From an uncultured bacterium (GTDB lineage: Bacteria; Oederibacteriota; Oederibacteriia; Oederibacteriales; Oederibacteriaceae), in NCBI GenBank assembly GCA_965112635.1, contig OZ218778.1, forward strand, positions 243,666-307,665: a stretch of 64,000 nt of DNA, in the 5' to 3' direction. The translations under genes and the position numbers were made by a program. The notes under the pieces were generated by a model that was not told the DNA's origin, did no database searches, and saw only the letters and a list, made by a program, of their open reading frames with translations. Numbering within the stretch: position 1 is the first letter of the stretch; every line of letters begins with the position of its first letter. Positions 2,246-46,631 of the stretch are shown here, piece by piece.

Positions 2246-3196
2246 TCAGCTTCCGTGCTCGTCCAGCCAGCGCAAGAGCTGGCTGATGCTTCCGGTCGCC
2301 AGGCTGATGTTGGTATCCGCCGCGCCGTAGTAAAGATTAATGGTATCCTTGTCGGCCCCCAGCGTGTATCCGCAGGGGAACACCACATTGGCCACATCGC
2401 CATGGCGCTCGTAGTCGGCCTCAGGACTAAAGATCCAGGAGTCGCCGCGCTTCAGGCATTGGTCCGGCTTGTCGAGCGCCAAGAGCGCCGCGCCCAGGCG
2501 GTAGATACACCCGGCCGCCGTTTGCCGGACCCCGTGATAAAGCATCAGCCAACCCCGGGAAGTCTCGATCAAAGGCGGAGAAAGCCCGATCTTGTTGGCG
2601 TCCCACCAGGCTCCTTTACGCGCCTTGAGGACGGGCTTATGGTCTCCCCAGTTCTGCAGGTCAGGCGAGTAGGAGATCCAGATGTCCGCCTGCGAGTAGG
2701 TCGTCGGGCGGTGGATGAGCGCGTAACTGCCGTTGATCCTGCGCGGCAGCAGAGTCGCGTCTTTGTCTTCCGGCTGCATGATCACGCCATAACGCTTGAA
2801 AACGCGGAAATCCTGCGTCTCGGCCAGTACCACGGCCGGGCCGCTTTTGCTGTAAGCGGTATACGCGACCATATAACTGCCGGACTCCTCAAAGTAGGTG
2901 ATCCGCGGGTCCTCGATCCCCCAAAGCTCCTCGGGATAATTCTGGGGATCAGGGCTGAGCGTGGGTTTTTGGTCAACGACCCACCCGTCTATCCCGTTCT
3001 TCGAGCGCGCCGCGCACAGGTGGGAATGCCCCCGCCGGTCCTCTACCCTGCAGAGCAGAAGCGTGGTGCCGTCCAAGAGCTTGATGGCGCCGGCGTTGAA
3101 CACCGTATGGGCCGGATACGGCCAGTCATCCGCCGTCAGGATTGGATTTTTTTCATGCCGTTTAAAAAGGACCTCATACCCGTGTTCCATGCTCAT
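2246..3196 (-). CDS. glycoside hydrolase family 130 protein (mannoside phosphorylase-like)
   Basis: 316-aa ORF with GH130-like signature (WGIEDPRITYFEESGSYMVAYTAYS); start overlaps stop of upstream gene (ATGA). Confidence 0.85.
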   Translation of the reverse strand: MSMEHGYEVLFKRHEKNPILTADDWPYPAHTVFNAGAIKLLDGTTLLLCRVEDRRGHSHLCAARSKNGIDGWVVDQKPTLSPDPQNYPEELWGIEDPRITYFEESGSYMVAYTAYSKSGPAVVLAETQDFRVFKRYGVIMQPEDKDATLLPRRINGSYALIHRPTTYSQADIWISYSPDLQNWGDHKPVLKARKGAWWDANKIGLSPPLIETSRGWLMLYHGVRQTAAGCIYRLGAALLALDKPDQCLKRGDSWIFSPEADYERHGDVANVVFPCGYTLGADKDTINLYYGAADTNISLATGSISQLLRWLDEHGS

Positions 3197-5451
3197 GGTT
3201 TTTTCCCCCGTCTGACAGTTTTTTCGCTGACAACGCCGATCCCGCCGCTGGAGTACATTTCCGCGAGCGCCAGCAGGAACGAGAGCGTGGACTCCGCGCC
3301 CTGGTTCGCGTTCACGGTGTCGCTATGGAGCCCGTCGCAGCAGCCGCCGGTCGATGGGTCGTAAAGTGATTGCTGCAAATGATTTTCCCCCAGCATCCAG
3401 TTAAAAGCCCGCCGCGCCTGCTTCGTCCACTGGCCGTCTCCGGTGACCCGCCCTGCCTCCAGGCAGGCCGAGACCATGCCGCAGGCTTCCACGGGCTGCT
3501 GGTCAAAAGCGGCCTTGGGCCCGCCCCGGCTGTAGAAGCCGTTCGAACCGACCGGCGCGAAAGTATCATCCCCGGAGCGCTGCACGGAGACCAGCCACCC
3601 CAGCGATCTCAAGCCCGCTTCCTTCATGATTTCATCCCCCATCAGGTTCCCGGATACGAGGAGCGCCTGGGATAACCGCGCGTTGCAGTAGGTCACGCGG
3701 TCCTCGAACCAGGGCCAGTCGCTGGTGCTGGTCCGCTGAAAAAGTCCCAGGAGACGCTCCGCCAGGGTTTTTCTCACCGACTGGATGCCGCTGTCCCCCT
3801 GGAACGCGCGAAGGTATTCGTCGATCCCTAAAAGCGCGTACGCCCAGGCGCGCGGGCTGGAAAAACCCTGGACCGCGGGTAAAGCCGCGTAAAACAAGCT
3901 GCTACTGAGGCTCTGTTGTCCGGGATCGCTGGCGCGGCCGACCACGCTTCCCAGCGCCCAAAGGGCCCGGCCATGGCTTTCTTCGGAGCCGCATTCTTCG
4001 GCCCACTGCCGGGAATAGGTGAGGAAGTTACGGAACCGGCCCTTTTCCGCGTTGAACGCGTTATTGACAAAGGCCAGATAACGGGAGGCCAGAGGAGTCA
4101 CCTCTTTGGCCGTGACCGTGCCCGCGTCCTCCAGGAGCGTCATCAGGAGCAAGGCGCGCGCGTTGTCGTCAAGGCAGTAGCCGTCCTGGTACCGCGGGAT
4201 GCTGAAGGCGGCGTGCTGCAATACTCCTGTCCCGTCCGTCATCAGCCGGAGGTGCTCTAGGTTGATCTCCGGAAGGTCAGCCGGCTGTTCCGCCAGCGTC
4301 CTGGCCTGGAACACCGTGCGCCGCCGGTCCGCTTGCCCGGATACGGCGCGTTCAAAACTCTTTAGATAGCTGGCCGCGACGCTGGGCCACAGCATTTCGC
4401 GGCCCAGGCTGGCGGCGCGCTGGCGCATGGCCAGCCGTTTCGCGTCATTACCCAGAAGGTCGTTGACGGCGTCCGCGATAGCCTTGGAGTCTTTCAAGGG
4501 GACCAGGACCCCGACGCCGTCGCGGAGCAGCTCCTGGGCGTGCCAGTAAGGAGTGGAGATGACCGCCCTGCCGGAACCCAGAGCGTAGGCCAGGGTCCCC
4601 GAGGTGGTTTGTTCCATATTAAGATAGGGCGTCACGTAGATGTCCGTCGCGGATAGGAATTCCACGAGCTCGGCCTGGCTCACGAAGCGGTTATGAAAAA
4701 TGATATTGGCGTCCACGCCCAGCCGCTGGGCGCGGTTTTCCAGCCCCAGCCGGTAGATCTCGCCGTGATGCTCTTTGACGTGGGGGTGGGTGGCTCCCAG
4801 CACGATGTAGACCGTGTCCGGATGCCGCCCCAGGATGGCCGGCAGGGCTTCGATGACATACTCGATCCCCTTGTCCGGCGAGAGCAGTCCGAACGTAAGG
4901 AGCACGGATCTGCCCGCCACGCCGAGCTTGTCCTTGCTGAGGGAGTCGAACGGCACGGCCGGTATCCCGTGGGGGATCAAGTCGATCTTGTGGTCCGGGA
5001 CCCCGTAGACCTTTCGGAGCGTCGCGGCGCCGCGCTCGGTCATGACCACGAGGCGCTCGGAAACCTGGACGAGTTCTTCCATCACGGCACGCTGGGGTTC
5101 ATTGGGTTCGCTGAGCAGCGTGTGCAGGGTCGTGACGACCGGCATCCGCAGCTCCCGGAGAAGCACCAGCAAATGGCTGCCGGCCTTGCCTCCGAAGATC
5201 CCGTATTCGTGCTGGACGCAGAGGACATCCACGGCGTTGACGTTCAAAAAATCCGCCGCCCGCCGGTACGAGGCGATATCGCTCTCGGTGATCTCGAAAC
5301 GGACGCGGCCGGAGTAATCATAACGCCGGTCGGCGTCGTTCATGGCCAGCACGAACAGGTCTTTTTCAGGGGATTGGGCCGCGACGGCCTCAGAGAGGTC
5401 ACCAGTGAAAGTGGCGATACCGCACAGGCGCGGGACATAACTGCCCAGCAT
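3193..5451 (-). CDS. GT4 (group 1) glycosyltransferase fused to a ~350-aa C-terminal domain of uncertain family (possibly glycoside-hydrolase-like)
   Basis: 752-aa ORF; N-terminal half has GT4-like architecture; C-terminal half not confidently assigned. Confidence 0.7.
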   Translation of the reverse strand: MLGSYVPRLCGIATFTGDLSEAVAAQSPEKDLFVLAMNDADRRYDYSGRVRFEITESDIASYRRAADFLNVNAVDVLCVQHEYGIFGGKAGSHLLVLLRELRMPVVTTLHTLLSEPNEPQRAVMEELVQVSERLVVMTERGAATLRKVYGVPDHKIDLIPHGIPAVPFDSLSKDKLGVAGRSVLLTFGLLSPDKGIEYVIEALPAILGRHPDTVYIVLGATHPHVKEHHGEIYRLGLENRAQRLGVDANIIFHNRFVSQAELVEFLSATDIYVTPYLNMEQTTSGTLAYALGSGRAVISTPYWHAQELLRDGVGVLVPLKDSKAIADAVNDLLGNDAKRLAMRQRAASLGREMLWPSVAASYLKSFERAVSGQADRRRTVFQARTLAEQPADLPEINLEHLRLMTDGTGVLQHAAFSIPRYQDGYCLDDNARALLLMTLLEDAGTVTAKEVTPLASRYLAFVNNAFNAEKGRFRNFLTYSRQWAEECGSEESHGRALWALGSVVGRASDPGQQSLSSSLFYAALPAVQGFSSPRAWAYALLGIDEYLRAFQGDSGIQSVRKTLAERLLGLFQRTSTSDWPWFEDRVTYCNARLSQALLVSGNLMGDEIMKEAGLRSLGWLVSVQRSGDDTFAPVGSNGFYSRGGPKAAFDQQPVEACGMVSACLEAGRVTGDGQWTKQARRAFNWMLGENHLQQSLYDPSTGGCCDGLHSDTVNANQGAESTLSFLLALAEMYSSGGIGVVSEKTVRRGKKP

Positions 5452-5669
5452 GGCGATCTTGCGGACTGCCTTTGGCGCGGTAAGGTTTTCGATAACTCCT
5501 CCGATGGCGCGCTCCTCGCTAAAGCAAGCGGAGACAGCGTCACTTCTAATGTATCACCGAATCGCGGGTGGAATATCACGATCTTCAGTCCCCGCCCTAG
5601 AGTCCGCGAGAAATAGACATTCCATTAGATTTATCAGTTGTCCTAATGGCAGTATTTGAAAGGACGGAT

Positions 5670-5948
5670 TCATTTATATATTTCTCTTCTGTGCCCAATA
5701 TCAATAATAATGACCAACAGCACATCGGATTTGATCATATAAATGATCCGATAACTCCCTACCCGGTAGGAATACTGACCTTTTAAATCCCCATGAAGGG
5801 GCTTGCCCAGATACGGTTCCCTTTCCAGGCCGTGAAGAGCATTGCTGATCCTTTCATAAAGCGGCCTGTCTCGTTTTGCAAGCTTCTTATAAAATTTTTC
5901 TGCATCTTCCTGCAGGACAACAGTGTATTTATTCAATTTCTTTTTCAA
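5670..5948 (-). CDS. type II toxin, RelE/ParE family
   Basis: 92-aa ORF, RelE/ParE-like C-terminus (YRIIYMIKSDVLLVIIIDIGHRREIYK); overlaps upstream antitoxin gene by 20 nt; AT-rich relative to neighbours. Confidence 0.85.
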   Translation of the reverse strand: MKKKLNKYTVVLQEDAEKFYKKLAKRDRPLYERISNALHGLEREPYLGKPLHGDLKGQYSYRVGSYRIIYMIKSDVLLVIIIDIGHRREIYK

Positions 5949-6195
5949 TCTCCTCTAATGGACGCACCTTGCCTTTCTTCACATTTTCCAGTCCCGCTTT
6001 AATTCTTTTCATGGCACTGCGGTCATTCAAAATATCAAGGGTTTCCATCAAGGATTCATAATCCTCATAGCTCATAATTTCAGCCACAGGTTTGCCGTGG
6101 TTCGTGACCGTGACCCTTTCCAATTTATGGTCTATCTTCTTAAGAACGCCGGGCAAGGTTTGCCTCAATTCCCTGACGCTCAAAACATTATTCAT
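5929..6195 (-). CDS. type II antitoxin, Phd/YefM family
   Basis: MNNVLSVRELRQ N-terminus typical of Phd/YefM; GGAGG RBS 8 nt upstream of ATG at 6195. Confidence 0.85.
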   Translation of the reverse strand: MNNVLSVRELRQTLPGVLKKIDHKLERVTVTNHGKPVAEIMSYEDYESLMETLDILNDRSAMKRIKAGLENVKKGKVRPLEEIEKEIE

Positions 6196-6256
6196 CTGCA
6201 ACACCTCCTCATTATGAAAATTTTATGTTAAGTATAGCAGGAAAAGGGTTAATTTG

Positions 6257-6275
6257 GTACACAGATGTGTACACA
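6257..6275. promoter_or_regulatory. palindromic candidate operator of the TA operon (GTACAC-AGAT-GTGTAC, overlapping TGTGTACACA)
   Basis: perfect inverted repeat 62-80 bp upstream of the antitoxin start, next to a TATACT -10-like hexamer on the minus strand. Confidence 0.4.
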
Positions 6276-6307
6276 TTAGGCAAAGGTGTTCTGCCGAAAG
6301 TGCTTTT

Positions 6308-6414
6308 CGACATAAATACGCAAGTAAGGAAACGCATTATTATAACTGGGCTTGCGCTTGTTTTGTCGTAAAGCTATTACGACATAAACACCCTTGAGTG
6401 GAAACGCATATTAA
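6308..6414. repeat. two degenerate ~35-bp direct repeats with 72-bp period (CGACATAAA...GGAAACGCAT)
   Basis: read directly; only two copies, roughly three-quarters identical. Confidence 0.4.
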
Positions 6415-6429
6415 AATCTGCAAGGGTGT

Positions 6430-7479
6430 TTAGCAGATCCTCGGCAGTTGGTCTCCGCTGAGCATGTCCAGGATCCTTCTCACGCCGATTTTGCTCTCCA
6501 GCGTGACCTGGCCCTTGGCGGCATCCAAAACCTTTCCCACCACAGCCGCTTCTTTACCAAGAGGATGGGCCCTCATCAAGTTAAGGGCTTTTTTCTCGTC
6601 TTTTTCCGGCACAAACAAGGCAAACCTGCCCTCATTGGCCACATACAAGGGATCCAGCCCCAGCATTTCACAGGCCGCCTGCACTTGATTGTTTACTGGG
6701 ATGGCCTTTTCTTCCAGGGCTATTTCCCTGCCAGAGGCCTGGGCTATCTCCACCATTGTCGTAGCCAATCCGCCCCGGGTCAGGTCGCGCAAACAATGGA
6801 CCTCGACCTCGGCCTTTAAGAGCTCCAGCACCAGGCCGGACAAGGGAGCGCAGTCGCTCTGGATGGTGGTTTCAAAATTCAACCCTTCCCGGCTGGCCAT
6901 GATGGCCATGCCGTGCCTGCCCAAATCTCCGTTGATGAGGATCTTGTCTCCGGGTTTGATGCTTTTGGGATGGATAACCAGCTTGTGGTCTATGGCTCCC
7001 ACCCCGGCGGTATTGATATACACGCCGTCCCCCTTGCCTTTGTCCACCACTTTGGTGTCACCGGTCACGACCTGCACTCCGGCCTCTTCGGCTGTTTTGG
7101 CCAGGGACTGGACGATTTGCCACAAGGTTTCCATGGCCAAACCTTCTTCCAATATAAAGGAAGCGGAAAGATAGAGCGGCCTGGCCCCGCACATGGCCAG
7201 ATCATTGACCGTGCCGCACACAGCCAGCTTGCCTATATCCCCGCCGGGGAAAAATAAAGGTTTGACCACGAATGAGTCCGAAGTGAAGGCCAGTTTTTCC
7301 CGTGTCGTGGGGAACACCGCGCTGTCGTGCCCTGCTCCAGGCAGGTCATTTTTAAAGGCGGGCAAAAACATTTTTTCGATGAGCTGGTGCATGAGTTTGC
7401 CGCCGCTGCCGTGGCCCAGGGTCACGACCGGATATTGGGCTATGGGGATGGGGCAGGTCAGATTAAATTCTTTAGGCAT
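6430..7479 (-). CDS. hypE: hydrogenase maturation carbamoyl dehydratase HypE
   Basis: HypE-like sequence ending in the characteristic C-terminal PRIC; AAGGAG RBS before ATG at 7479. Confidence 0.9.
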
Positions 7480-7501
7480 AAATATGCTCCTTAAAAATTG
7501 T

Positions 7502-7572
7502 GTCCAAAGTCTCAAGTCCAATGTCCAAAGTTTTTGTGTAACTTTGAACTTTAAACTTTGAACTCGGAACTA
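7502..7572. repeat. hypD-hypE intercistronic repeats (GTCCAAAGT x2, AACTTTGAAC x3) able to form stem-loops
   Basis: read directly in the 105-nt gap between hypD stop and hypE start. Confidence 0.4.
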
Positions 7573-7584
7573 TCATTACTCCAA

Positions 7585-8670
7585 TCAATGCTTCCTATAG
7601 TTGTAATAAGCTGCGCAGGCGCCCTCAGGCGACACCATCGGCGCACCCAGCGGCGTTTCCGGAGTGCAACGCGTGGCAAAAGCCGTGCATTCCTTGGGTT
7701 TTTTGATGCCCTGCAGGACCAGACCGCTGATACACTCGGGGTCTTCGCTCACCGCCAGGTCTTGGAGGTCAAACTTTTTTTCCGCGTCATAGGCCGCATA
7801 CTGGGGCCGCAGACCTAGGCCGCTCAAGGGGATCTCTCCGATACCGCGCCATTTGCGCGGTACGATCTGAAAAACTTCCTTGATGAGTGTCTGGGCAGGT
7901 AGATTGCCCTGCCTCTGGACACTGCGGGTATATTGATTCTCCACTTTGGCTTCGCCTTTTTCCAGTTGAGCGATGCATAGATACAGCCCCTCTAAAATAT
8001 CCACTGGTTCGAACCCCGTGACCACGATGGGAACTTTGAATTTCGCCGCCAGCGGTTCATACTCGGTATAACCCATGACCGTGCACACATGGCCCGCGGC
8101 CAGGAAGCCGTTGATCCTTTGGTTCGGGGAACTCAGGATCGCCTCCATGGCCGGCGGCACCAACACATGAGAGACCAGAATGGAAAAGTTCTTTATCCCC
8201 TGTTCCTTGGCCTGGAAAACCGCCATGGCATTGGCCGGCGCCGTAGTCTCAAACCCCACGGCAAAAAACACCACCTGTTTCCCTGGGTTTTCCCGGGCCA
8301 GCTGGAGACAATCCAGGGGTGAATACACCATGCGCACATCCCCGCCCTGGGCCTTGGCCAACAACAGGTTCTCTTTGGTCCCGGGCACGCGCATCATATC
8401 GCCGAAAGAGCAAAAGATGATGTCAGGCCGATGGGCCAGCTGGATGGCCTTATCGATGAGCTCGACGGGTGTCACGCACACCGGACATCCCGGGCCGTGG
8501 ATCAGGGTGATCCCCTTGGGCAACAGCTCATCCACTCCGTACTTGACGATGGAATGCGTCTGTCCGCCGCACAGTTCCATGATGTTCCAGGGCTTGGTGG
8601 TTATCTTCTGGATAAGTCCGGCGATATGGCGGGCTTGTTCCGGGTCACGGTATTCGTCGATAAATTTCAA
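7585..8670 (-). CDS. hypD: hydrogenase maturation factor HypD
   Basis: 361-aa ORF with HypD motifs (CGGQTHS, GPGCPVC); apparent TTG start overlapping the hypC stop. Confidence 0.9.
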
Positions 8671-8912
8671 CCAATGCCTTCCCTTCCCAGGGCATCCATC
8701 TCACGAAAAGCTTCGTAGACTTTGGCCGCTTCTTTTTCATCCAACCGGCTGATGGCAAAACCCACATGCACATACACATAGTCGCCGACCTTAGCCTCAG
8801 GCACATAGGCCAGGCAGGCCTCTTTGATCACGCCTTCGTAACTCACTTTGCCCATACGGGTCTGGGCGTTCTCTTCAATGCTAATGATCTTACCGGGTAT
8901 GGCTAAACACAT
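8667..8912 (-). CDS. hypC: hydrogenase maturation factor HypC
   Basis: 81-aa ORF starting MCLAIP, the HypC/HupF hallmark. Confidence 0.9.
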
Positions 8913-8927
8913 AATTAAATACCTCCC

Positions 8928-8974
8928 AGACCAGCTTGCAAATTTTCAACATACTTTCCCTCTAAAGCTGGTCT
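8928..8974. promoter_or_regulatory. 10-bp perfect inverted repeat (AGACCAGCTT / AAGCTGGTCT) in the hypC leader
   Basis: read directly, 16-60 nt upstream of hypC start. Confidence 0.3.
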
Positions 8975-9150
8975 TTATCGTAAAGTGCTTTCAACAACCT
9001 TATTATTATCATTATTTCACGAATCATTAGTCCGGGCAACCGCTTCAAGTATTATCTGATGAGACTTTTTCGGCGGACTAATGAGGTTGACTTTCCCCTC
9101 TGGGCTTGTTAGCTTTTTTTTGCACTGGGCAACAGCCCAGCCCGGAGCGC

Positions 9151-9178
9151 CATGCTCATGCATGCGTGCTTTAGCACG
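9151..9178. promoter_or_regulatory. composite palindromic motif copy C (CATGCTCATGCATG + CGTGCTTTAGCACG), ~240 bp upstream of hypC
   Basis: read directly; related to copies at 1940-1969 and 2051-2091. Confidence 0.4.
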
Positions 9179-9212
9179 AGCCAAAGGATCATTCTTGGCA
9201 AGCGAAGGTGCA

Positions 9213-9252
9213 GTTCGTATGCTATTCTATAAAAAATTAATAGCATACGAAC
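9213..9252. promoter_or_regulatory. candidate NikR operator: perfect 14-bp inverted repeat with 12-bp spacer, containing GTATGC-N19-GCATAC
   Basis: read directly; 50-90 bp upstream of the OMP gene that heads the nikR/nickel-uptake block; overlaps a possible -35 TTGGCA / -10 TATGCT. Confidence 0.45.
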
Positions 9253-9304
9253 CAGCATCAATTATTCAATTTTTTGTAAAGAACTTTAAATTAGGAGGAA
9301 ATAA

Positions 9305-10229
9305 ATGTTCCCCTCCAAAGTCTATCTATTCATTTTCACACTGCTCCTATTATCCTTGACCAATCAGGGCCTGTGCCATGTGATACCCACTACTCCTAAT
9401 GATGACTGGAATCCAGTTTCCACCGGCCCCATCAACACCTGGACCGCTTCCCTGGAACCCGCCGGGGAACTTAACACTCAGCTCTTTGTTTTTTACACCA
9501 TGACCACGGGATTTTATGACGGGGCGGGAAAGTTCTGGTCATTGCCGGATAACACCACCAAGACCCAGTTCCAGGAGCAGCTGTTCCTCCAATATGCTAT
9601 CAACCCTATGTTTGAAATGGATGCCCAACTTTCCACTTTTCAAAATACGCTCAAGGTCGGCGACCAGACTTCCTATTATAGTGGCCCGGGTGACTCGATC
9701 TTCTTTTTGCGTTATGCCATCGCCACCGAAACTCATCCTTACCCCTTCCTGACCGGCGTACTCCAGCTCAGGGTTCCCTCGGGCAATTTTCTTAACCAAA
9801 CCTCCACCCTAAGGACTTCTGATCTCACCGGCACGGGAAGCGTGGGCAGTGGGTATGGGGTTGATGGCCACCAAAAAACTCAAACCATTCTTGCTGCATA
9901 CCGACCTCATCTACAATGTACCCTTACAGACCCAGACCAATATCACTTCTATTAACTACGGCGACTCCGTGAATTATGACCTGGGTGCCGAATACTTTAT
10001 GTCCTACGGATTTAACCTGTCCATGGAGATGAATTATATCTACGAGGCCACTGGCAGTATTTATGGCTTATTCACTCCCGGCGTTTCGGGTAACTACCTC
10101 ATGCTGACCCCGGGACTAGGCTGGGCCGTAAAAAATACCCAGTTACTACTCGGCTATCAATGGGGACTCTATGGCGTCAACACCGATGCCCTAAGTTCCT
10201 ATGTCTTTACCGCCTCGGCTCCGTTCTAA
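9305..10229 (+). pseudogene. putative outer-membrane beta-barrel protein, reading frame broken at an A6 run near 9874-9879
   Basis: signal peptide MFPSKVYLFIFTLLLLSLTNQG, C-terminal aromatic residue; two overlapping ORFs (9305-9955, 9849-10229) rejoin if A6 is read as A5. Confidence 0.5.
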
Positions 10230-10267
10230 AAAAACACTCGTCGGACAAAACTTAAGGAGGCAAAATT

Positions 10268-10684
10268 ATGGCAGGTTTAGTAAGATTTGGCGTATCCCTG
10301 GAAAAAGAACTTCTCAAAAAATTTGATCGACTTATCACCCAAAAACACTACACCAACCGCTCCGAAGCCCTGCGCGACCTCATCCGGGAAGAATTGGTCA
10401 AAGAACAATGGAACCAGGGAGACGAAGTGGCCGGCGCCATTACCCTGATCTACAACCACCACCATAGAGACCTGACCGATAAATTGACTAACATTCAACA
10501 TGATTATGGAGACTGCATCCTGTCTTCCCAGCACATCCACCTAGACCACCACCACTGCCTGGAGATCATCGCGGTCAAAGGGTCCCCCAGCCAGGCGCAA
10601 AAACTGGCCGACACCCTCCACGCGGTTAAAGGAGTCATGCATTCCAGCCTCAGCATGTCCACCACCGGCAAAGAAATACATTAA
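10268..10684 (+). CDS. nikR: nickel-responsive transcriptional regulator NikR
   Basis: 138-aa ORF: ribbon-helix-helix N-terminus (RFGVSLEKELLKKFD) plus His/Cys-rich C-terminal domain (HHHRD, HLDHHHC). Confidence 0.9.
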   Translation: MAGLVRFGVSLEKELLKKFDRLITQKHYTNRSEALRDLIREELVKEQWNQGDEVAGAITLIYNHHHRDLTDKLTNIQHDYGDCILSSQHIHLDHHHCLEIIAVKGSPSQAQKLADTLHAVKGVMHSSLSMSTTGKEIH

Positions 10685-10816
10685 ACCGTATTTTCACTCG
10701 TAACTCCCAGTCCATATCTCCTCAAAAATAATGACCCTCAAACTCTTGACAGACCTACTCCTATGTGTTACTTTTCCAAAATTCGTGTTACTAATTATAC
10801 AAGAGGAGGATTTAAG

Positions 10817-13009
10817 ATGATGAAAAGCAATAAAACCAGGTTTTCCTTGGTCGGTTTTATTTTTTGTTCGCTATTGTTGTCCAACCCTAGCTGGGGGCAG
10901 GATGGCGCCAACAGCACCCTGGATGCATTGCGTCATGACAGCAGCCCTGCGGCAGTTACTAAGAGCGCTATACCTGTAAGTGTGACCAAGACCGCTGCAA
11001 CGGAGTCAACCGTGGCCGGTGAAGAAGTAGTGGTTAGAGGCAGGGCTGCCAACTTGCTGGGACTGGCAGACTCGGCCATGCAGGGCAGTGTCAGCCAGGA
11101 AGACCTGAGCCACCGTGCTTTGCTCAGGACGGGAGAAGTTATGGAAGCCGTACCCGGACTGCTCATCACACAGCACAGTGGTGACGGCAAAGCCAACCAG
11201 TATTTCAGCCGAGGTTTTAATCTTGATCACGGCACTGATTTTTCATTCAATGCTGATGATGTTCCTATTAACCTGCCCAGCAATGCCCATGGTCAAGGCT
11301 ATACAGACCTTAATTTCCTCATTCCCGATCTGGTTAAGGAAGTGAACTATTCCAAAGGACTTAATAGCGTTGAATACGGGGAATTTAATACCGCAGGCTC
11401 AGCCAATTTTGTTTATCCCAATACTCTGCCCCAAAATATCGCTTCTCTGACCATGGGAGAATGGGGATATCAGAGAGGGCTTTTGGCCGCATCCAACCCC
11501 TTGGGGTCAGGGAATTTGTTGTACGCCGTGGAAGTTTGCGGTTATGACGGTCCCTGGGATGTCCCGGAAGATAATAAAAAATATAATGGATTGCTTCGCT
11601 ACAGTTATGGAAACTCAGAGAGCAGGTGGGCGATCACGGCATCCCTTTATCAGGCTGCCTGGACCTCCACTGACCAGGTCCCGCAACGAGCGGTGGACGA
11701 GGGTCTGATCGATTTCTGGGGCAGCCTTGATCCGACTGATGGCGGTAAGACAAAACGCTACAGCGTTTGGGCAAGCTGGAATGGCCAATCCCAGGACTGC
11801 CAGTCCATGGTCATGGCCTATGAAACCTATTTTCATATGAATCTTTGGAGCAACTTCACCTATTTTACTGACGATCCTGTTCACGGCGACCAGTTTGAAC
11901 AGGAAGATGAGCGGTATATCACCGGCGCTAAAGCCAGGCAGATATACAACAACACTATCGCCGGGCTGGCCATGAAAAATGAGATCGGCGCGGATTTCCG
12001 CAATGATGACGTGCCCATCCTGGGCCTTTACGATACGGAGGCTCATATTCCGTGGCAAACCGTCCAGCTTAACCAGATGGTCCAAACCAGCGGAGCTCCC
12101 TATGCGGAAAATACCACTTATTGGACACCATGGCTGAGAAGTATTTTGGGATACCGTCACGACTTCTTCCATTTCAAAGTTAACGGTGCTACTCCTGCTA
12201 CCAGCGGAGAGGCTGATGCCAACATAGCCGAACCTAAGGTAGCCCTGGTGCTGCGGCCTTATGAAGGGCCGGTGGAGCTGTACGCCAACTATGGCTGGGG
12301 TTTTCACTCCAATGACGCGCGTATCATTGCGCCGGATGCTTTAAATCAGTTAAGCATTATGGGCAACAATGTGAACACCGCTCCCCTGGTCCACGCGGAG
12401 GGAGAAGAAGTAGGCGCCCGTTTCGGCTGGCAGAATTTATTTGAATCCACGGTATCTTTATGGCGCCTGCATCTGGATTCTGAATTGACTTTTGACGGAG
12501 ACGCGGCCGCTCCCAGTCCCAATGGGCCTTCTACGCGTAATGGGGTGGAATGGTCCAATTCCTTGAGGCCTAAACCCTTTTTCCTGGATTTCGACTACTC
12601 CTGGTGCCAGGCGCGGTTTGATCAGACTGCGTTAGATGATGATGGAGAGCACCCGGGTGAGTATGTGCCGGAGGCTCCGGTAAACATGGCTACAGCCACT
12701 TTAGGCACTGATCCCATAGAAGGCTGGTCTGCGGACTGTCGTTTGCGTTACTTTGGGGCAAGGCCGCTGGTACCGGATAATTCGGTGCAATCCAGCGACC
12801 TGACACTGGTAAGTCTTCGTGTCAGCCGTCAGCTGACGGAAAATCAATCCATTTTCTTCGATATTTTTAATCTTTTTAACCAGCGGGGTTATGATATTTC
12901 TTATTATTACGCCACAAGCGTACAGTCGGGAGCCCCGTCGATCCCGGACATAAACAGTAAACCCGCTGAGCCGCGGTCTTTGCGTGTGACCTGGCAGGAC
13001 CGTTTCTAA
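10817..13009 (+). CDS. TonB-dependent outer-membrane receptor, probably nickel/metal uptake by context
   Basis: signal peptide, plug-domain-like region, ~700-aa barrel ending in F; GAGGAGG RBS before ATG at 10817 (track ORF starts at 10763). Confidence 0.85.
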   Translation: MMKSNKTRFSLVGFIFCSLLLSNPSWGQDGANSTLDALRHDSSPAAVTKSAIPVSVTKTAATESTVAGEEVVVRGRAANLLGLADSAMQGSVSQEDLSHRALLRTGEVMEAVPGLLITQHSGDGKANQYFSRGFNLDHGTDFSFNADDVPINLPSNAHGQGYTDLNFLIPDLVKEVNYSKGLNSVEYGEFNTAGSANFVYPNTLPQNIASLTMGEWGYQRGLLAASNPLGSGNLLYAVEVCGYDGPWDVPEDNKKYNGLLRYSYGNSESRWAITASLYQAAWTSTDQVPQRAVDEGLIDFWGSLDPTDGGKTKRYSVWASWNGQSQDCQSMVMAYETYFHMNLWSNFTYFTDDPVHGDQFEQEDERYITGAKARQIYNNTIAGLAMKNEIGADFRNDDVPILGLYDTEAHIPWQTVQLNQMVQTSGAPYAENTTYWTPWLRSILGYRHDFFHFKVNGATPATSGEADANIAEPKVALVLRPYEGPVELYANYGWGFHSNDARIIAPDALNQLSIMGNNVNTAPLVHAEGEEVGARFGWQNLFESTVSLWRLHLDSELTFDGDAAAPSPNGPSTRNGVEWSNSLRPKPFFLDFDYSWCQARFDQTALDDDGEHPGEYVPEAPVNMATATLGTDPIEGWSADCRLRYFGARPLVPDNSVQSSDLTLVSLRVSRQLTENQSIFFDIFNLFNQRGYDISYYYATSVQSGAPSIPDINSKPAEPRSLRVTWQDRF

Positions 13010-18919: not shown

Positions 18920-21010
18920 CTAAACGGTGTTTAAAAGCTCAATCAGTTCCCCGACCTCAAAAGGTTTCCTAAGGCTTCCGTTAAATCCGTATTTCTTGGG
19001 TTCCACGATCACCGGGTCATTGTAATATCCGCTGGAGACGAACACCGCCAGGTTTGGGGCGAACCCCCTGATCTTCTCGACCGCCTCCTTGCCTCCCATG
19101 CCCATGGGGATGGTAAGGTCCAGGATCACCGCCATAAAAGGTTCCTTTTGATGCTCCGGGTTTTTTAAAAACTCTAGGGCCTCTTTTCCGTCCTTGGCGC
19201 CGATGGGAGCGCACCCCAGGGTGATGAGCGTCCGGGCCAGCATTTTGACCACATCCGGCTCGTCGTCCATGATCAATATCTTGCCTGTCTTTTTCAGGTT
19301 AAACACCTTCTGAGCCGCATCCTCCGGCAAAGGCTTTTGGGAAGCAGGCAGGTAAACATGGAAGGTGGACCCTTTGAGCGGAATGGATTCTACATCGATA
19401 CAGCCGCCATGATTTTTGACGATGGAATAGGCTGAGGTCAATCCCAGGCCGCGTCCTCCGATCTTGGTGGTGTAGTAGGGGTCAAAAATGCGTAGCTGCA
19501 CCTCCGGCGCTATCCCTGTCCCGTTGTCCCTGAAGGAAACCCTGACATAATTTCCTTCCGGCAAACTGGGATGCTGCTTGGCCAGGAGGGTCACGTTTTC
19601 CGCCGTCACTTTAAGGCTCCCTCCGCCGGGCATGGCCTGGACCGCGTTGAGGAGGATATTTTCAAAGACCTGCCCTATCTGATTCTCGTCATAATCCAGG
19701 GACCACAAACCTTGTTCGATCCTGAACTCCGGACGGATACGGGACCCGCTCAGGGTGAACTGGACGACACTGGGGATGAATTTGGCCAAAGTGCCCGTCT
19801 TTTTGGTCGGAGCCCCTCCTCTGGAAAAGGTGATCAGTTGGTTGGTGATGGACCGGGCCCGTTCCATGGTCTTGAGGGAATCGCTGAGGCACTCCAGCAT
19901 ATCCTGCCGTTTGGGGTCCATGCGCAAAAGCTGCAGGTTGCCGTAAATAATACTGAGCAGGTTGTTGAAATCGTGGGCGATGCCCGCGGCCAGGATGCCG
20001 ATGGACTCCAGCTGCTGGGTCTTTTGGAGCTGCAGTTCGTATTTCTCGTGCTCTTCAACGGCCCGCTTGCGGTCCGTGATGTTGCGGCAAAAGGATACAA
20101 TATCCTTGACCCCTCCGCCGGTTGTTTCCACCGTGGCATTGATCACGACATGGACGCGGGTGCCGTCGCGGTGCTGGTAAATTGTCTCAAAATCATTGAG
20201 ATACCCCTGCCGGGCGCACAGAGCCACCGCCCGGGCGTCCTTTTCCTTCTCCTGGGGAGCGGTCCATTCGATGACCGAATGCCCCACCACTTCTTCTGCA
20301 CGATTAAAACCTGCGAGGCGGCAGTAGGGTTCGTTGGCCGCCCGGACCACCCCGTGGTCATCGGTGACCGCAAACCCTGTATCCGTATTGTCCAAAAGCT
20401 GGCGGTATCTCGTTTCGCTTTCCAAAAGCTCCCTTTCCGTCTTTTGGCGCCGGGCCAGTTCATCCTGGGCTTGGCTTAGGTTTTTCCTCATGTTGGTCGT
20501 AAGAACATCGACGGCAAAAGCCCACACCGTCAGGATAATGGTGATGACAATAAAGTCAAAACCAAAGGTTTCCGGGATGGGCAGCGGCTGGTACCATCCG
20601 TATTTTTGGCCGAAAACCAGCCAGGCGAGAGAGGCCAAGACCAGGCCGACCGTGATCATCAAAGCGGTCCGTCCGAGGGTGAGCCCGGCGACCACAAAGA
20701 TTACTGGAATAGCGAGGATTCCAACATCCCTGTAGCCCTGGCCATAAGTCGCAAAAAGCACCAGGATGACCAGCTGAAAAAAGATAAGGACCCAGTTGCC
20801 CAAAATAGTCTTGCCCCGTAACAACAGGATAAAGGGAACAAGTTGAAGGATACTTCCAATGATAGCGACCGCGATCTCATAAGGCTCCTTATCCAGGATG
20901 CCGGTAAGGATGAGAAAAGCATAGGCTATCCAGGCGACTGTCATCAGGGTGAAAAGAACCCGGCGGTTTTGTCTGTCCTGGACGCTTTCAATATTGTTTG
21001 GCAAGGTCAA
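18920..21010 (-). CDS. hybrid sensor histidine kinase (multi-TM N-terminus, PAS, HisKA, HATPase, C-terminal receiver)
   Basis: H-box [10 protein letters not shown]; HATPase motifs; receiver with ILIMDDEPD. Confidence 0.8.
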   Translation of the reverse strand: MTLPNNIESVQDRQNRRVLFTLMTVAWIAYAFLILTGILDKEPYEIAVAIIGSILQLVPFILLLRGKTILGNWVLIFFQLVILVLFATYGQGYRDVGILAIPVIFVVAGLTLGRTALMITVGLVLASLAWLVFGQKYGWYQPLPIPETFGFDFIVITIILTVWAFAVDVLTTNMRKNLSQAQDELARRQKTERELLESETRYRQLLDNTDTGFAVTDDHGVVRAANEPYCRLAGFNRAEEVVGHSVIEWTAPQEKEKDARAVALCARQGYLNDFETIYQHRDGTRVHVVINATVETTGGGVKDIVSFCRNITDRKRAVEEHEKYELQLQKTQQLESIGILAAGIAHDFNNLLSIIYGNLQLLRMDPKRQDMLECLSDSLKTMERARSITNQLITFSRGGAPTKKTGTLAKFIPSVVQFTLSGSRIRPEFRIEQGLWSLDYDENQIGQVFENILLNAVQAMPGGGSLKVTAENVTLLAKQHPSLPEGNYVRVSFRDNGTGIAPEVQLRIFDPYYTTKIGGRGLGLTSAYSIVKNHGGCIDVESIPLKGSTFHVYLPASQKPLPEDAAQKVFNLKKTGKILIMDDEPDVVKMLARTLITLGCAPIGAKDGKEALEFLKNPEHQKEPFMAVILDLTIPMGMGGKEAVEKIRGFAPNLAVFVSSGYYNDPVIVEPKKYGFNGSLRKPFEVGELIELLNTV

Positions 21011-42453: not shown

Positions 42454-42849
42454 CTAGACACAGACTGTTTCCCCAATACCCAGCAGGTCTTTGACCTGAT
42501 CGATAAAACTCCTATTATCTATGGGCTTGGAAATATAGGAGTCAAACCCGGCTGCCCATATCTTTTCCTGTTCGTCTCTCATAGCCAGGGCAGTCAGGGC
42601 CACGACCTTCACGCCCGCGGTCCTTTGCTCACCCCGGATCCGCTTAAAAATGGTAAAGCCGTCCACCTCCGGCAGATTGATATCCAGCAGGACGAGGTCG
42701 GGGACACAGCTTTCCAGCACCCGGAAGCACTCCTCCGCGTTGAACGCCTTCAGCACCCTGAGCCCCTGCATTTCCAGCAGGGCCTCGGCAAGCCTCATAT
42801 TCGCTTCATCATCCTCTACCATCAATACTGTTTTGCTTTGCGTGAACAT
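42454..42849 (-). CDS. single-domain response regulator (receiver only)
   Basis: 131-aa CheY-like receiver (LMVEDDE, LLDINLPEVDG, YISKP). Confidence 0.8.
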   Translation of the reverse strand: MFTQSKTVLMVEDDEANMRLAEALLEMQGLRVLKAFNAEECFRVLESCVPDLVLLDINLPEVDGFTIFKRIRGEQRTAGVKVVALTALAMRDEQEKIWAAGFDSYISKPIDNRSFIDQVKDLLGIGETVCV

Positions 42850-45022
42850 GAACTCCTCCTTGTAGGATCAAAATTCTTTCCGCAGTTTCCGTGCCGCAAA
42901 CTTCTCCCGGTGCCGGCTGCGGCCTGACTGCGCTGAGATCCGGTAAAGCTAAATAAAACCGGGAACCCTTGTCTTTGCCCTTGCTCTCGCACCACAACCG
43001 GCCTTTCTGCATATCCGCTATTTTCTTGGAAAGCGCCAGGCCCAGCCCCGTGCCTCCATACTGGCGGTTGAGGCCGCCCTGGACCTGTTCAAATTCATTA
43101 AATATCCTGAGCTTGTCTTTTTCTTCGATACCGATGCCCGTATCCTCAACGCAGATGCTTATCTCCCCGTTGTTTCCGCCCGCGGTCAGGCGGATCTCCC
43201 CGCCTTCCGGGGTGAATTTGACCGCGTTGGAGAGCAGGTTATTGACCACCTGCTTTATCATGCGTTCATCCGCATAAACAACGCCCGCTTCCCTGGCCAC
43301 CTGCAAAGAAACTTTGATCCTCTTTTTCTGGATCTTATCCGTCACCATCATCAGACTGGACTCCAGGAGCTTTCTGAGATCCACCTCGCTCGCCTCCGAG
43401 GTCACTTTGCCGGTCTCTATCTTGTTCAGGTCCAGAATATCGTTGATCAGGGAAAGCAGATGCTTGCCGCTATCGTAGATATTTAGGGCATACTCGGACT
43501 GCTTAGCGGTCAGCGGCCCGACATCGCCCGACTTCATCATGTCCGAAAACCCGATGATGGCATTAAGGGGAGTTCGTAATTCATGGGACATCGTGGCCAG
43601 GAAAGCCGACTTGGCCCGGTTGGCGGATTCGGCCGTTTCACGGCCCAGATTGGCCTCTTCAATTTTTTTGCTCAAGGTGATATCCCTGACCGTGGCCTGC
43701 AGGAATTGCTTACCCTCCAGTTCCATGCGGGTCAGAAGTACGGTAGCGGGGAAATCCTCGCCGTTTATCCGTTTGTGTGTCCACTCAAATAGGTTATTTC
43801 CCTCCCGCATCGCTTTTTCGATCATTTCCTTGGCCTTTTCGCCGGATGGCCGGCCGTCCGGCTGTTTTTCCGGGGATAACTTACCCGGTCTGTAGGAATT
43901 AAAATCCTTTGAGTCCTTTGCTCCGAACATCCTGACCGTTTCCGGATTTCCTGAGGTGAAATTCCAGTCAGGCGGCTTCAGGGTCATCAGGGCGTCGCTG
44001 GAATATTCAAATAGATAACGGTATCTTTCTTCGCTTTTTCTCAGGGATTCTTCCATGGTTCGGCGGGAGGTGGCGTCACGGAATATCCCCATCATATACT
44101 GCTTGCCTTCCAGTTCGATTTGGTGGGAACTGATATCCGCGTAAATAAGGGAGCCATCCTTTCGTTTAAAAGGCACATCTGTTTCCATCAAAACCTGGTT
44201 TTTGGGGCCTTTATCAAATCTTTCCGCGGCACTCCCAAAAGCCTGGGGAGGATGGATATCCCTGACGCCCATGCGAGTCAATTCCTCATGCCCGTAGGCC
44301 AGGAGTTGGCCCATGCTCTGGTTCGCGTCAAATATTTTCATGGTTTGGGGGTCCACCAGCATGATGCCGTCCGAGGCATGGTCAAAAATGGCCTTGAACT
44401 TGCCTTCCCCCAGGCTCAAGGCTTTGCTGGTCCTGTTCCGCTCGGTGAGGACCATCCTTTGGGCGATAAGAAAACCAATAAAGACGAAGAACCCGACCAC
44501 CCCAAAGACATTGTTCCGGGCCTGGATGTTTTTTTGCATCGTGGAAACGAACAGCGACCTGATAGTGTTCCTCAAGGTGAAAGCATTTTTGAATACTTCA
44601 TCGGCCTGCCGGGGACCCGGTTGTTCCAAAGTCCCTGGGGTGGCTGCGCCATATTGGACCGGCGTATCCTGGATCCACAGGGGGGACATACCGGACAGGG
44701 TGGCCTCAAAGTTTTTTTGGACTTTTTGCAGGAGCGCCTTGTCCTGGGCGCTGGTAAAACTTTTGAGGGCTGTAGCCAGCAGGCCCTCTAAAGTGCTGGT
44801 TTTTTTATCCCACTCGGTTTTTAGTTGCTGGCTGGGATACAGCAGGTACCTGGCCCTCAGGACGATCCTGGCCGAAACCGTGTTGCTCATTTCATCGGCG
44901 AGCTGGAGGTTCCGGCTGGCCAGGGTAATATCCCTCAGGGTCCAGGCCAGGGCCAGGAGCATGAGCACGACCCCTCCCGCATATATCCATCCATTGTCTT
45001 TCATCCATTTATCCATCCTCAT
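42809..45022 (-). CDS. membrane-anchored PAS sensor histidine kinase
   Basis: N-terminal TM, PAS domains, H-box SHELRTPLNAI, HATPase motifs. Confidence 0.8.
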   Translation of the reverse strand: MRMDKWMKDNGWIYAGGVVLMLLALAWTLRDITLASRNLQLADEMSNTVSARIVLRARYLLYPSQQLKTEWDKKTSTLEGLLATALKSFTSAQDKALLQKVQKNFEATLSGMSPLWIQDTPVQYGAATPGTLEQPGPRQADEVFKNAFTLRNTIRSLFVSTMQKNIQARNNVFGVVGFFVFIGFLIAQRMVLTERNRTSKALSLGEGKFKAIFDHASDGIMLVDPQTMKIFDANQSMGQLLAYGHEELTRMGVRDIHPPQAFGSAAERFDKGPKNQVLMETDVPFKRKDGSLIYADISSHQIELEGKQYMMGIFRDATSRRTMEESLRKSEERYRYLFEYSSDALMTLKPPDWNFTSGNPETVRMFGAKDSKDFNSYRPGKLSPEKQPDGRPSGEKAKEMIEKAMREGNNLFEWTHKRINGEDFPATVLLTRMELEGKQFLQATVRDITLSKKIEEANLGRETAESANRAKSAFLATMSHELRTPLNAIIGFSDMMKSGDVGPLTAKQSEYALNIYDSGKHLLSLINDILDLNKIETGKVTSEASEVDLRKLLESSLMMVTDKIQKKRIKVSLQVAREAGVVYADERMIKQVVNNLLSNAVKFTPEGGEIRLTAGGNNGEISICVEDTGIGIEEKDKLRIFNEFEQVQGGLNRQYGGTGLGLALSKKIADMQKGRLWCESKGKDKGSRFYLALPDLSAVRPQPAPGEVCGTETAERILILQGGVHVHAKQNSIDGRG

Positions 45023-45065: not shown

Positions 45066-46631
45066 TCATTGGAATTCTTCCTTACCGGCCATCACCATCT
45101 GGAAGGCCTTGGCCTCTTCCCGGCGGCCTAAAGAAATCAGCGGTTTAACAAAGGAAAAAATGGTCTTTTTTTCACTGGCCGCAGCCAGGGGCAGGCTAAA
45201 ACTTATGGAATTGTCCCCCTTGGAGGGAAAATCCACCTTGATTTCGCCCTGATGCGACTCCACGATCCTCTTGGCTATGGCCAGCCCCAGGCCTATGCCC
45301 GGGATATCGCCCGCGCCCTCTTTGTCCACCTGATAAAAAGTGTCAAAGATCTTCTGCCGTTCCTCGCAGGGTATGCCGGGGCCGTTATCGCCCACAGAGA
45401 ACCTGACCAGGCCTTGCTCCTGCCTGGCCGTGAAAGTGAGCTTGACTATCTTTTGGTCGTTGAATTTCACGGCGTTCTCAATGAGGTTGCTCAACAGTAT
45501 CTCCAGCATCACCGGGCTGAGCCGCAGCCCCACCATGCTGCCCGGCAGGTCGAATGTGTATTCGATCTCTTTATCCGTATGCTTTTTGAGGATGGCCTTC
45601 ACGATTCCCTCTATCCGGTCCATATACACAGAGCCCTCTCCGACACCTTTGCCCCCGTAACGGGCCGCCGTGTCCACATTGACAAAATCCGTTATTTTTT
45701 CCATCACCTTTGAAAACTCGGCCAATCTTTTCATCGTGGCCTCTGCGGAGTCCCTGAGCCGGGTATTTTTCATGGCCACAAAGGCCTCTTTCATCTGGGC
45801 CAAATGGCCCAGGCTCAGGTTCAGGGGAGCATGCACTTTTTGGGCGATAAGGTTGAGAAAATTTGCTTTCCGGTGCTTTTCTCCCCTCTGTTCCGTCACG
45901 TCATGCAAAATGATGACCACGCTGGTTGTCCTGCCCTGGCTGTCCCTGATCACCCTGGAACTGAAACTAAGTATCAGCGGCCAGTAGGTGGGGAACTCGG
46001 GCCGCTCCAGGTCAAAATCAAGGTCGTCAATGACCAGGTCGGTCTTCAGCTCGCCTTCATAATGGACCTTAAAGGTCTGGTGCAGGCGGTCCAGCCAGTC
46101 CGGGGACGGCTCCACAAAGCTCAGCAGCTCCCGGGCCAGCTGGTTGGACCGGACGATCCTCAGGTCCGCGTCGCAGACGATCAACCCTTCACTGGCCCGC
46201 TCAATGACCTTTTCCAGCTTTTTCTTTTCATCCACCCGGGAGCGTTCATTGTGGAGCTGGAGGAGCGTCTTGACCTTGGCCAGCACTTCATTGATATCAA
46301 AAGGCTTGGAAATAAAATCATCGCATCCCGCCTCTATCCCGGAGATCCGGGCGCTGGTTTCGGCCAGCGCCGTGATCATCACCACGGGCAGCGTCTTAGT
46401 GCTTTCCGCGGCCCGGATCTTCCGCGTCACCTCGAAACCATCCATATCCGGCATCATCACGTCCAGCAGGACCAGGTCTATTTTTTCATAGGTGAGTTTC
46501 CTTAGGGCCTGCCCCCCGTTTTCCGCGGTGACGACCTCGTAACCCTTGGACTTGAACAAAGTGGCCAGGAGCTCCACATTAAGGGGCTCGTCGTCCACCA
46601 CCAAAATCGTGGTTTTTTCAACTATATTCAT
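45066..46631 (-). CDS. receiver-PAS-histidine-kinase-like fusion protein
   Basis: N-terminal receiver (ILVVDDEP, LLDVMMPDMDG), central PAS, C-terminal HATPase-like domain; ATG 46631 overlaps upstream stop (ATGA). Confidence 0.75.
   Translation of the reverse strand: MNIVEKTTILVVDDEPLNVELLATLFKSKGYEVVTAENGGQALRKLTYEKIDLVLLDVMMPDMDGFEVTRKIRAAESTKTLPVVMITALAETSARISGIEAGCDDFISKPFDINEVLAKVKTLLQLHNERSRVDEKKKLEKVIERASEGLIVCDADLRIVRSNQLARELLSFVEPSPDWLDRLHQTFKVHYEGELKTDLVIDDLDFDLERPEFPTYWPLILSFSSRVIRDSQGRTTSVVIILHDVTEQRGEKHRKANFLNLIAQKVHAPLNLSLGHLAQMKEAFVAMKNTRLRDSAEATMKRLAEFSKVMEKITDFVNVDTAARYGGKGVGEGSVYMDRIEGIVKAILKKHTDKEIEYTFDLPGSMVGLRLSPVMLEILLSNLIENAVKFNDQKIVKLTFTARQEQGLVRFSVGDNGPGIPCEERQKIFDTFYQVDKEGAGDIPGIGLGLAIAKRIVESHQGEIKVDFPSKGDNSISFSLPLAAASEKKTIFSFVKPLISLGRREEAKAFQMVMAGKEEFQ

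Follow-up and report, generated by a model that had tools for sequence, protein, structure and literature searches.

The stretch of DNA that was analysed here (the window, 64 kb in length) carries the hydrogenase-maturation genes hypC, hypD and hypE as one unit on its minus strand. The first gene of this unit is hypC (8667-8912, 81 aa; Pfam HupF_HypC, 3e-26), which is followed by hypD (7585-8670, 361 aa; Pfam HypD, 3.5e-155; stop codon TGA at 7587-7585) and hypE (6430-7479, 349 aa; Pfam AIRS and AIRS_C; ATG at 7479-7477). A preliminary description of this DNA had reported an overlap between hypC and hypD and a 105-nt spacer between hypD and hypE, and both readings agree with the sequence, as the overlap is 4 nt (TTGA) and the distance from the hypD stop codon to the hypE ATG places the spacer, on the minus strand, at exactly 7480-7584. 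Immediately downstream of hypE, also on the minus strand, there is a Phd/YefM antitoxin (5929-6204) and ParE toxin (5670-5948) gene pair, and after that pair a gene for a 752-aa glycosyltransferase (3193-5451). Divergent from hypC, the plus strand holds (9305-13009) an ORF of 307 aa that lacks a Pfam match, nikR (~10268-10684) and a gene for a TonB-dependent receptor (10763-13009), and this group likely represents a nickel-uptake module that adjoins hypCDE. Among the neighbouring ORFs examined we found no hypA, hypB, hypF or hydrogenase structural genes, and an Rfam scan found no rRNA in the window. PAS-domain hybrid histidine kinases are abundant in the window (18920-21010, 42809-45022, 45066-46655, 48409-51081 and 53172-56507). 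A HypD identical to that of the window is found only on one 2.88-Mb NCBI contig and one ENA contig (ERZ25039471 contig_13894). The closest non-self HypD is 76% identical and the closest non-self xylulokinase 57-59% identical, with the named homologues of these two proteins being a mixture of Verrucomicrobiota, Acidobacteriota (Blastocatellia), Sumerlaeota and archaea. Judged from these protein identities, the source lineage is poorly sampled and has no close relative sequenced.

Evaluating the hypD–hypE spacer revealed a palindrome of about 69 nt (7502-7570) that is built from two inverted arrays, each of approximately four heptanucleotide units of a GTYNAAA family. Read in the sense direction, the 5' arm (7540-7570, minus strand) comprises the tandem heptamers GTTCCGA, GTTCAAA, GTTTAAA and GTTCAAA and a final GTT (Tandem Repeats Finder period 7, 3.6 copies, 88% matches), the loop of the minimum-free-energy structure (7533-7539) is the 7-nt ACACAAA, and the 3' arm (7502-7532) comprises AAC and then the inverted heptamers TTTGGAC, ATTGGAC, TTGAGAC and TTTGGAC, which are GTCCAAA-type units on the plus strand. 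Each arm is internally homogenised, one having the T-variant of the unit and the other the C-variant. Tandem Repeats Finder called period-7 arrays at 7501-7528 and 7540-7564, and the period-7 self-identity of the spacer was 0.47 versus 0.27 +/- 0.045 in shuffled sequence, with none of 2000 dinucleotide shuffles reaching 0.47. The preliminary description had listed two repeat families, one occurring twice and the other three times, as near reverse complements whose transcript would fold into extended stems just upstream of the hypE ribosome-binding site (RBS). The near-complementarity and the stem are confirmed, and so is the first count, with GTCCAAAGT present in two exact plus-strand copies (7502 and 7523); the second count is only partly right, as AACTTTGAAC occurs in two exact plus-strand copies (7540 and 7554) and the third copy, AACTTTAAAC at 7547, carries one mismatch. 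Both families are in fact tandem heptamer arrays, a feature that the earlier reading had overlooked.

In the folded sense RNA, the two arms (7570-7540 and 7532-7502) pair as a 27-bp stem with 6 G.U pairs and the 7-nt loop, and this stem contains bulges and is rich in A/U and wobble pairs. Folding 126 nt of the sense RNA gave -30.9 kcal/mol (z = -3.4), which none of 200 shuffles matched, and the 105-nt spacer alone folds at -26.8 versus -16.0 +/- 2.8 in shuffles, none of 2000 being equal to it. The antisense RNA gave -16.9 (z = -0.66) and single-stranded DNA folded weakly on both strands (-9.8 and -7.0; z = -1.5 and -0.6). Only the sense-strand RNA has a structure that clearly exceeds chance.

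Two features follow the stem on its way to hypE, namely a U5 run (7493-7497, minus strand) that starts 4 nt past the stem and the Shine-Dalgarno (SD) sequence AAGGAG (7487-7492, minus strand), which lies 9 nt after the stem and 7 nt before the ATG. A hairpin and then a run of U on the sense strand could work as an attenuator or a leaky intrinsic terminator, so that hypE would be transcribed less than hypCD. However, the run is set off from the stem by its 4 nt, and the stem with its 27 A/U- and wobble-rich, bulged base pairs is unlike the short G+C-rich stems of terminators. A consensus scan for promoters and terminators across 5400-10800 returned no signal in the hypD–hypE spacer, and a search by eye for a hypE promoter within the spacer found no acceptable -10/-35 pair; as the spacer offers hypE no promoter-like site of its own, termination at this point would leave an essential maturation gene short of transcription. 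We therefore give termination or attenuation very little credence, and the U5 run may be weakly terminator-like or simply part of an A/U-rich leader.

A different possibility is that the stem belongs to a dedicated cis-regulatory RNA for hypE, in which it would modulate ribosome access by translational control, as an RNA thermometer or as a ligand or protein switch. A stem that is stable only in sense RNA and ends 9 nt before a strong SD is what one would expect of such a device, yet both the SD and the start codon are outside that stem. In the minimum-free-energy fold only the two G's of AAGGAG pair, in a small separate hairpin (per-base unpaired probabilities of 0.69, 0.96, 0.37, 0.35, 0.62 and 0.31), and neither the minimum-free-energy nor the centroid structure contains an alternative pairing with the SD. 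Because AAGGAG lies outside the stem, occlusion of the RBS is unsupported. The preliminary description had left a choice between a processing site and a translational-control site, and of these it is processing that is most plausible, by analogy with the Coxiella stem discussed below, whereas translational control by sequestration of the RBS finds no support in an AAGGAG that stands 9 nt clear of the pairing.

Comparison with the rest of the window and with RNA families revealed a solitary element. Mismatch searches with both heptamer dimers, a periodicity scan, Tandem Repeats Finder and an inverted-repeat scan yielded no second copy in the 64 kb. The only other period-7 runs in the window, GGGGAAC at 2.7 copies (48371-48389) and AAGGGGG at 2.1 copies (53138-53152), are too short to interpret. 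Rfam 15 gave 0 matches across the whole window at gathering thresholds, and a sensitive scan of 7380-7700 gave chance-level eukaryotic miRNA models only (top 23 bits versus a cut-off of 90.8). In enterobacteria, REP/BIME elements are dispersed extragenic palindromes between operon genes, and their mRNA stem-loops can stabilise the upstream segment. Within the 64 kb, the window element differs from these in having neither a REP consensus nor an associated RAYT transposase, and its arms are tandem heptamers rather than unique sequence; the inverted-repeat scan found no other comparable palindrome in the window.

To place the spacer among its counterparts, we surveyed 80 metagenomic hypD loci (68-76% identity), and in 56 of them hypD is followed by hypE on the same strand. 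Of these 56 junctions, most overlap or abut (-17 to +24 nt), approximately 15 have spacers of 54-195 nt and approximately a dozen hold inserted genes, with the longer spacers among the 56 loci having no sequence or structure in common with that of the window. The notion of a conserved control structure for hypE thus largely fails, and the element, on this comparison of junction sequences, is lineage-specific and not a conserved hyp regulator. That the hairpin is absent from relatives whose genes mostly overlap or abut, that it matches no Rfam family and that hairpins of the same kind stand between unrelated gene pairs elsewhere (see below) are further points against a dedicated regulatory RNA for hypE, and we regard such an RNA as scarcely probable. 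Without positions 7502-7570 the window spacer would be 36 nt, a length typical of relatives, which suggests that the window copy was inserted.

Other hypD–hypE junctions carry hairpins of their own. Two loci hold independent heptamer hairpins whose sequences differ from the window's, one with CAACATC/GTTGGAT arms (L190; z = -4.5) and one with AGCAGGC/CTGCCTA arms (L167), a third (L191) possibly does as well, and in a further locus (L154) another heptamer hairpin is found just after hypE. The closest HypD relative (76%; L122:4096-4229) has a 134-nt spacer that folds at -51 kcal/mol (z = -3.1), is non-heptameric and is unrelated in sequence, and this spacer may represent a palindromic insertion of a different type. 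Direct heptamer arrays (AATCCGC, AATCCAA, TCCAATC and similar) were also observed in frame in the variable hypF linkers of several HypD relatives (L139:113-145 and 1212-1243; L146:1137-1163 and 2274-2308; L160, L162, L173 and L187 at ~1300).

Hairpins of the window's design are widespread. Scanning one genome per species across 185,579 species for (GTTYAAA)3 revealed at least 120 loci, with the matches listed belonging to Acidobacteriota (many of them Pyrinomonadaceae), Verrucomicrobiota, Bacteroidota, Cyanobacteria, Nitrospirota, Planctomycetota and others, and with several genomes among these matches having more than one locus. A fold screen of the listed matches found at least 40 arrays that pair with downstream sequence, and about 20 of these 40 are strong (GTTCAAA)n-loop-(TTTGAAC)n hairpins with loops that are mutually unrelated and differ in length. 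Most such hairpins lie tightly between co-directional ORFs, as judged from crude ORF calls that were verified by reading in three cases (L026, L118 and L042), and among the matches listed the inverted heptamer arrays of many phyla share a consistent outer phase (G...C ends). Two Pyrinomonadaceae have an orthologous heptamer hairpin between ftsY and ribD (L026:3069-3165 and L118:4922-5031), with arms that are ~100% identical, flanking coding DNA that is 89% identical and a loop that has diverged with indels. The arms have thus been maintained or homogenised across speciation.

The heptamers are also seen within coding sequence. In a Verrucomicrobiae MAG (L003:4729-4810), a (GTTCAAA)4...(TTGAAC)4 hairpin sits in frame in leuS, where its translation, FKVQSSKFKVAATGDSKALNLEHGTLNS, is flanked by the conserved motifs EELW and QPWP, and in another locus (L053:3985-4050) a (GTTCAAA)n array starts right at the ATG and is translated as the N-terminus of the ORF. 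In its forward orientation the GTTCAAA heptamer is stop-free in every frame. Rickettsia palindromic elements (RPEs) are in-frame palindromic insertions, and the leuS hairpin resembles them in this respect.

We also asked whether the sense-only stability of the window stem is a trait of the class. Among solo hairpins, 6 were more stable as sense and 9 as antisense (using crude ORF calls), and among the PF05635 cassettes described next the numbers were 4 and 7. As there is no consistent class-wide sense bias, the behaviour of the window copy cannot be generalised, and it is possible that such stems have a role at the DNA level or no role.

Evaluating the inserted genes of the hyp loci linked heptamer arrays to a protein family. 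One relative (L123, region 3311-3800) has a 417-nt hypD–hypE gap with a 129-aa ORF that matches PF05635 (E = 3.6e-34), with (AGAAGTC/AGAGATC)n upstream of the ORF and (TCTGACT)n downstream of it. PF05635 is the '23S rRNA-intervening sequence protein' (S23p), a four-helix bundle that is Avd-like (PMC10053308). An iterated HMM over the fetched loci found four further PF05635 genes (L018, L040, L053 and L112), and look-ups of eight homologues added further loci. Together these place a PF05635 gene with inverted heptamer arrays at the hypD–hypE junction in four lineages (L123, L205-7, L209-10 and L213-14), and in other loci between hypC and hypD (L202 and L215), between ABC permease and ATPase genes (L208 and L211), between grpE and dnaJ (L217) and between groES and groEL (L112:4100-4660). 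Every PF05635 gene at these hyp, groESL, grpE-dnaJ and ABC transporter loci is co-oriented with both of its neighbours. Inverted period-7 arrays of up to ~20 units flank the gene on both sides in 11 of the 13 distinct PF05635 loci, and in three of the loci the arms belong to the same GTYNAAA family as the window's (GTTTAAA in L018, TTTGAAC in L040 and GTCTAAA in L112). From their sequence organisation, these operon-borne PF05635 genes look like selfish cassettes of the intervening-sequence (IVS) type that live in mRNA spacers, and we found no earlier description of operon-dwelling PF05635 cassettes in the literature searched. The iterated HMM found no PF05635 ORF in the 64-kb window, where the 7-nt loop shows no trace of an S23p ORF.

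A further possibility is that the window arms are a binding array, in DNA or RNA, for a protein that recognises heptamers, with an Avd/S23p-like pentamer, S1, Csp and CsrA as candidates. Besides the arrays that adjoin genes for the Avd-like PF05635 proteins in 11 of the 13 loci, such a reading could draw on the four GGA motifs of the 3' arm, on the proposal that heptamer repeats are protein-binding sites in Beggiatoaceae (PMC4679880) and on the change in promoter-reporter activity that followed deletion of heptamer repeats in Nostoc (bioRxiv 10.1101/2022.06.06.494920). On the other hand, no binding protein is known, the window has no PF05635 gene, and units repeated every 7 bp would not keep in phase with the helix of DNA. 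The GGA motifs, moreover, are buried in the stem and not in loops, and when inspected by eye as CsrA-type sites they were rejected on that ground. We consider a binding array improbable.

It is also conceivable that the palindrome is purely a mutational by-product, in which slippage expanded a heptamer and template switching made the inverted copy, leaving an element that is neither mobile nor processed and does not influence hyp expression. Among the long simple repeats of prokaryotes, those with heptanucleotide units are the most frequent and have been attributed to polymerase slippage, at least as Mrazek 2007 is summarised in PMC4679880, and in our own 0.5-Mb sample (the hypD loci and the window) period 7 was the commonest tandem-repeat period, with 14 of 37 arrays of at least 3 copies. 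The direct arrays in frame in hypF linkers, the homogenisation within each arm (T-variant versus C-variant) and the lack of a class-wide sense-strand bias are all compatible with such an origin. Slippage alone, however, leaves unexplained the recurrent inverted architecture with its consistent outer phase in many phyla, the tight association with PF05635 cassettes and the conservation between species of arms but not loop, and RNase III would be unlikely to overlook a 27-bp RNA stem within an mRNA. For these reasons we think it unlikely that mutation by itself accounts for the element.

Among described elements, the closest analogues are the STRR hairpins of cyanobacteria and those stems of 23S rRNA intervening sequences that RNase III cuts. 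STRR hairpins made of 7-bp units occupy the hupS–hupL intergenic region of Nostoc, Anabaena and Lyngbya, where a role in transcript stability or translational coupling has been proposed (PMC2670836; PMC2661322), and repeats are also found in the Nostoc hyp operon (PMC2408588). The window element resembles them in having tandem 7-bp units in both arms (period-7 identity of 0.47 versus 0.27) and in being a hairpin of the transcript (27 bp, z = -3.4) between two cistrons of a hydrogenase-related operon. It differs in its unit, which is GTTCAAA/TTTGGAC and none of CCCCAGT, TTGGTCA and CAACAGT, which we take to be the canonical STRR units. It also differs in its host, which is not evidently cyanobacterial, with best named protein matches to Verrucomicrobiota and Acidobacteriota MAGs and a G+C of ~53%. 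As for the many dispersed copies that are typical of STRRs, the window element has one locus in the 64 kb examined.

The 23S rRNA intervening sequence of Coxiella has been described as selfish. It has a terminal stem of 28 bp with heptamer repeats on the 5' side of the stem, these tandem repeats (GACAGAT) lie just upstream of its S23p ORF and vary in number among strains, and RNase III excises the sequence, making its 5' cut at the first of the repeats (PMC4990558). Compared to the intervening sequences of Coxiella, Leptospira and Salmonella, the window element likewise has terminal inverted repeats (27 bp versus 28 bp in Coxiella), its arms hold heptameric repeats as does the Coxiella sequence, and in other bacteria this hypD–hypE junction is taken up by PF05635 cassettes whose arms are inverted heptamer arrays. 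The differences are that the window element has a 7-nt loop in place of a PF05635 ORF and is found in an mRNA spacer, not in helix 25 or 45 of 23S rRNA. What points to a link between the window element and the S23p cassettes is their shared architecture and insertion sites. A more distant parallel is the TAACTGA heptamer (MacGregor 2015), which forms intergenic direct repeats in marine Beggiatoaceae, Cyanobacteria and Bacteroidetes and is suspected of acting post-transcriptionally (PMC4679880). Both are tandem arrays of heptanucleotides that lie between genes and occur patchily across phyla, but the TAACTGA repeats are direct and stand immediately upstream of start codons, over the position of the RBS, whereas the window arrays run in opposite orientations, pair as a stem and do not cover the canonical SD.

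Weighing these observations together, we favour as reasonably probable that the window spacer contains a palindromic insertion that is specific to its lineage and probably selfish and that belongs to the heptanucleotide-repeat hairpins, a class that includes the cyanobacterial STRR hairpins as well as the terminal stems of 23S rRNA intervening sequences and of S23p cassettes, and that its stem serves as an RNase III or decay-barrier site in the hypCDE mRNA. Heptamer hairpins would arise in or insert into the intercistronic spacers of operons and persist there as selfish or near-neutral DNA. In the hypCDE mRNA, the window copy would fold into its 27-bp stem, ending 9 nt upstream of the hypE SD, and this long stem may be cut by RNase III or act as a barrier to exonucleases. 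Cleavage is suggested because the heptamer-bearing 28-bp stem of the Coxiella intervening sequence is cut by RNase III (PMC4990558), and the stem might instead be stabilising. Either a cut or a barrier would set the hypE part of the message apart from the hypCD part, in a physical or a kinetic sense, and hypE would presumably be translated from its own strong RBS, not via coupling to hypD.

A broader and more tentative proposal, which we hold to be possible though doubtful, is that solo heptamer hairpins and PF05635 cassettes are the non-autonomous and autonomous forms of a single widespread 'intervening sequence' family. Such a family would colonise 23S rRNA, operon spacers (hypC-D-E, groES-EL, grpE-dnaJ and ABC transporters) and occasionally coding linkers, with an Avd-like pentamer binding the arms and mediating mobility or RNA processing, and such sites would be places where host operons are cut or buffered.

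For the hyp genes, the outcome of this analysis is mostly deflationary, as the hairpin, though real, does not represent a conserved regulator of hyp and is of low interest for hyp regulation, and spacers of this sort in hydrogenase-maturation operons are best annotated as repeat-element insertions. Heptamer hairpins, known mainly as cyanobacterial STRRs, are nonetheless common in Acidobacteriota, Verrucomicrobiota, Bacteroidota and other phyla, and the architecture and insertion sites that they have in common with PF05635 cassettes across phyla suggest one operon-dwelling 'intervening sequence' family. The only experimentally characterised relative of the PF05635 cassettes is the 23S intervening sequence of Coxiella, which RNase III excises. 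If the link between hairpins and PF05635 is true, it would give STRR-type hairpins a testable origin and mechanism, and it would reveal an under-appreciated class of selfish elements inside operons that could shape the stoichiometry of operon products via mRNA processing.
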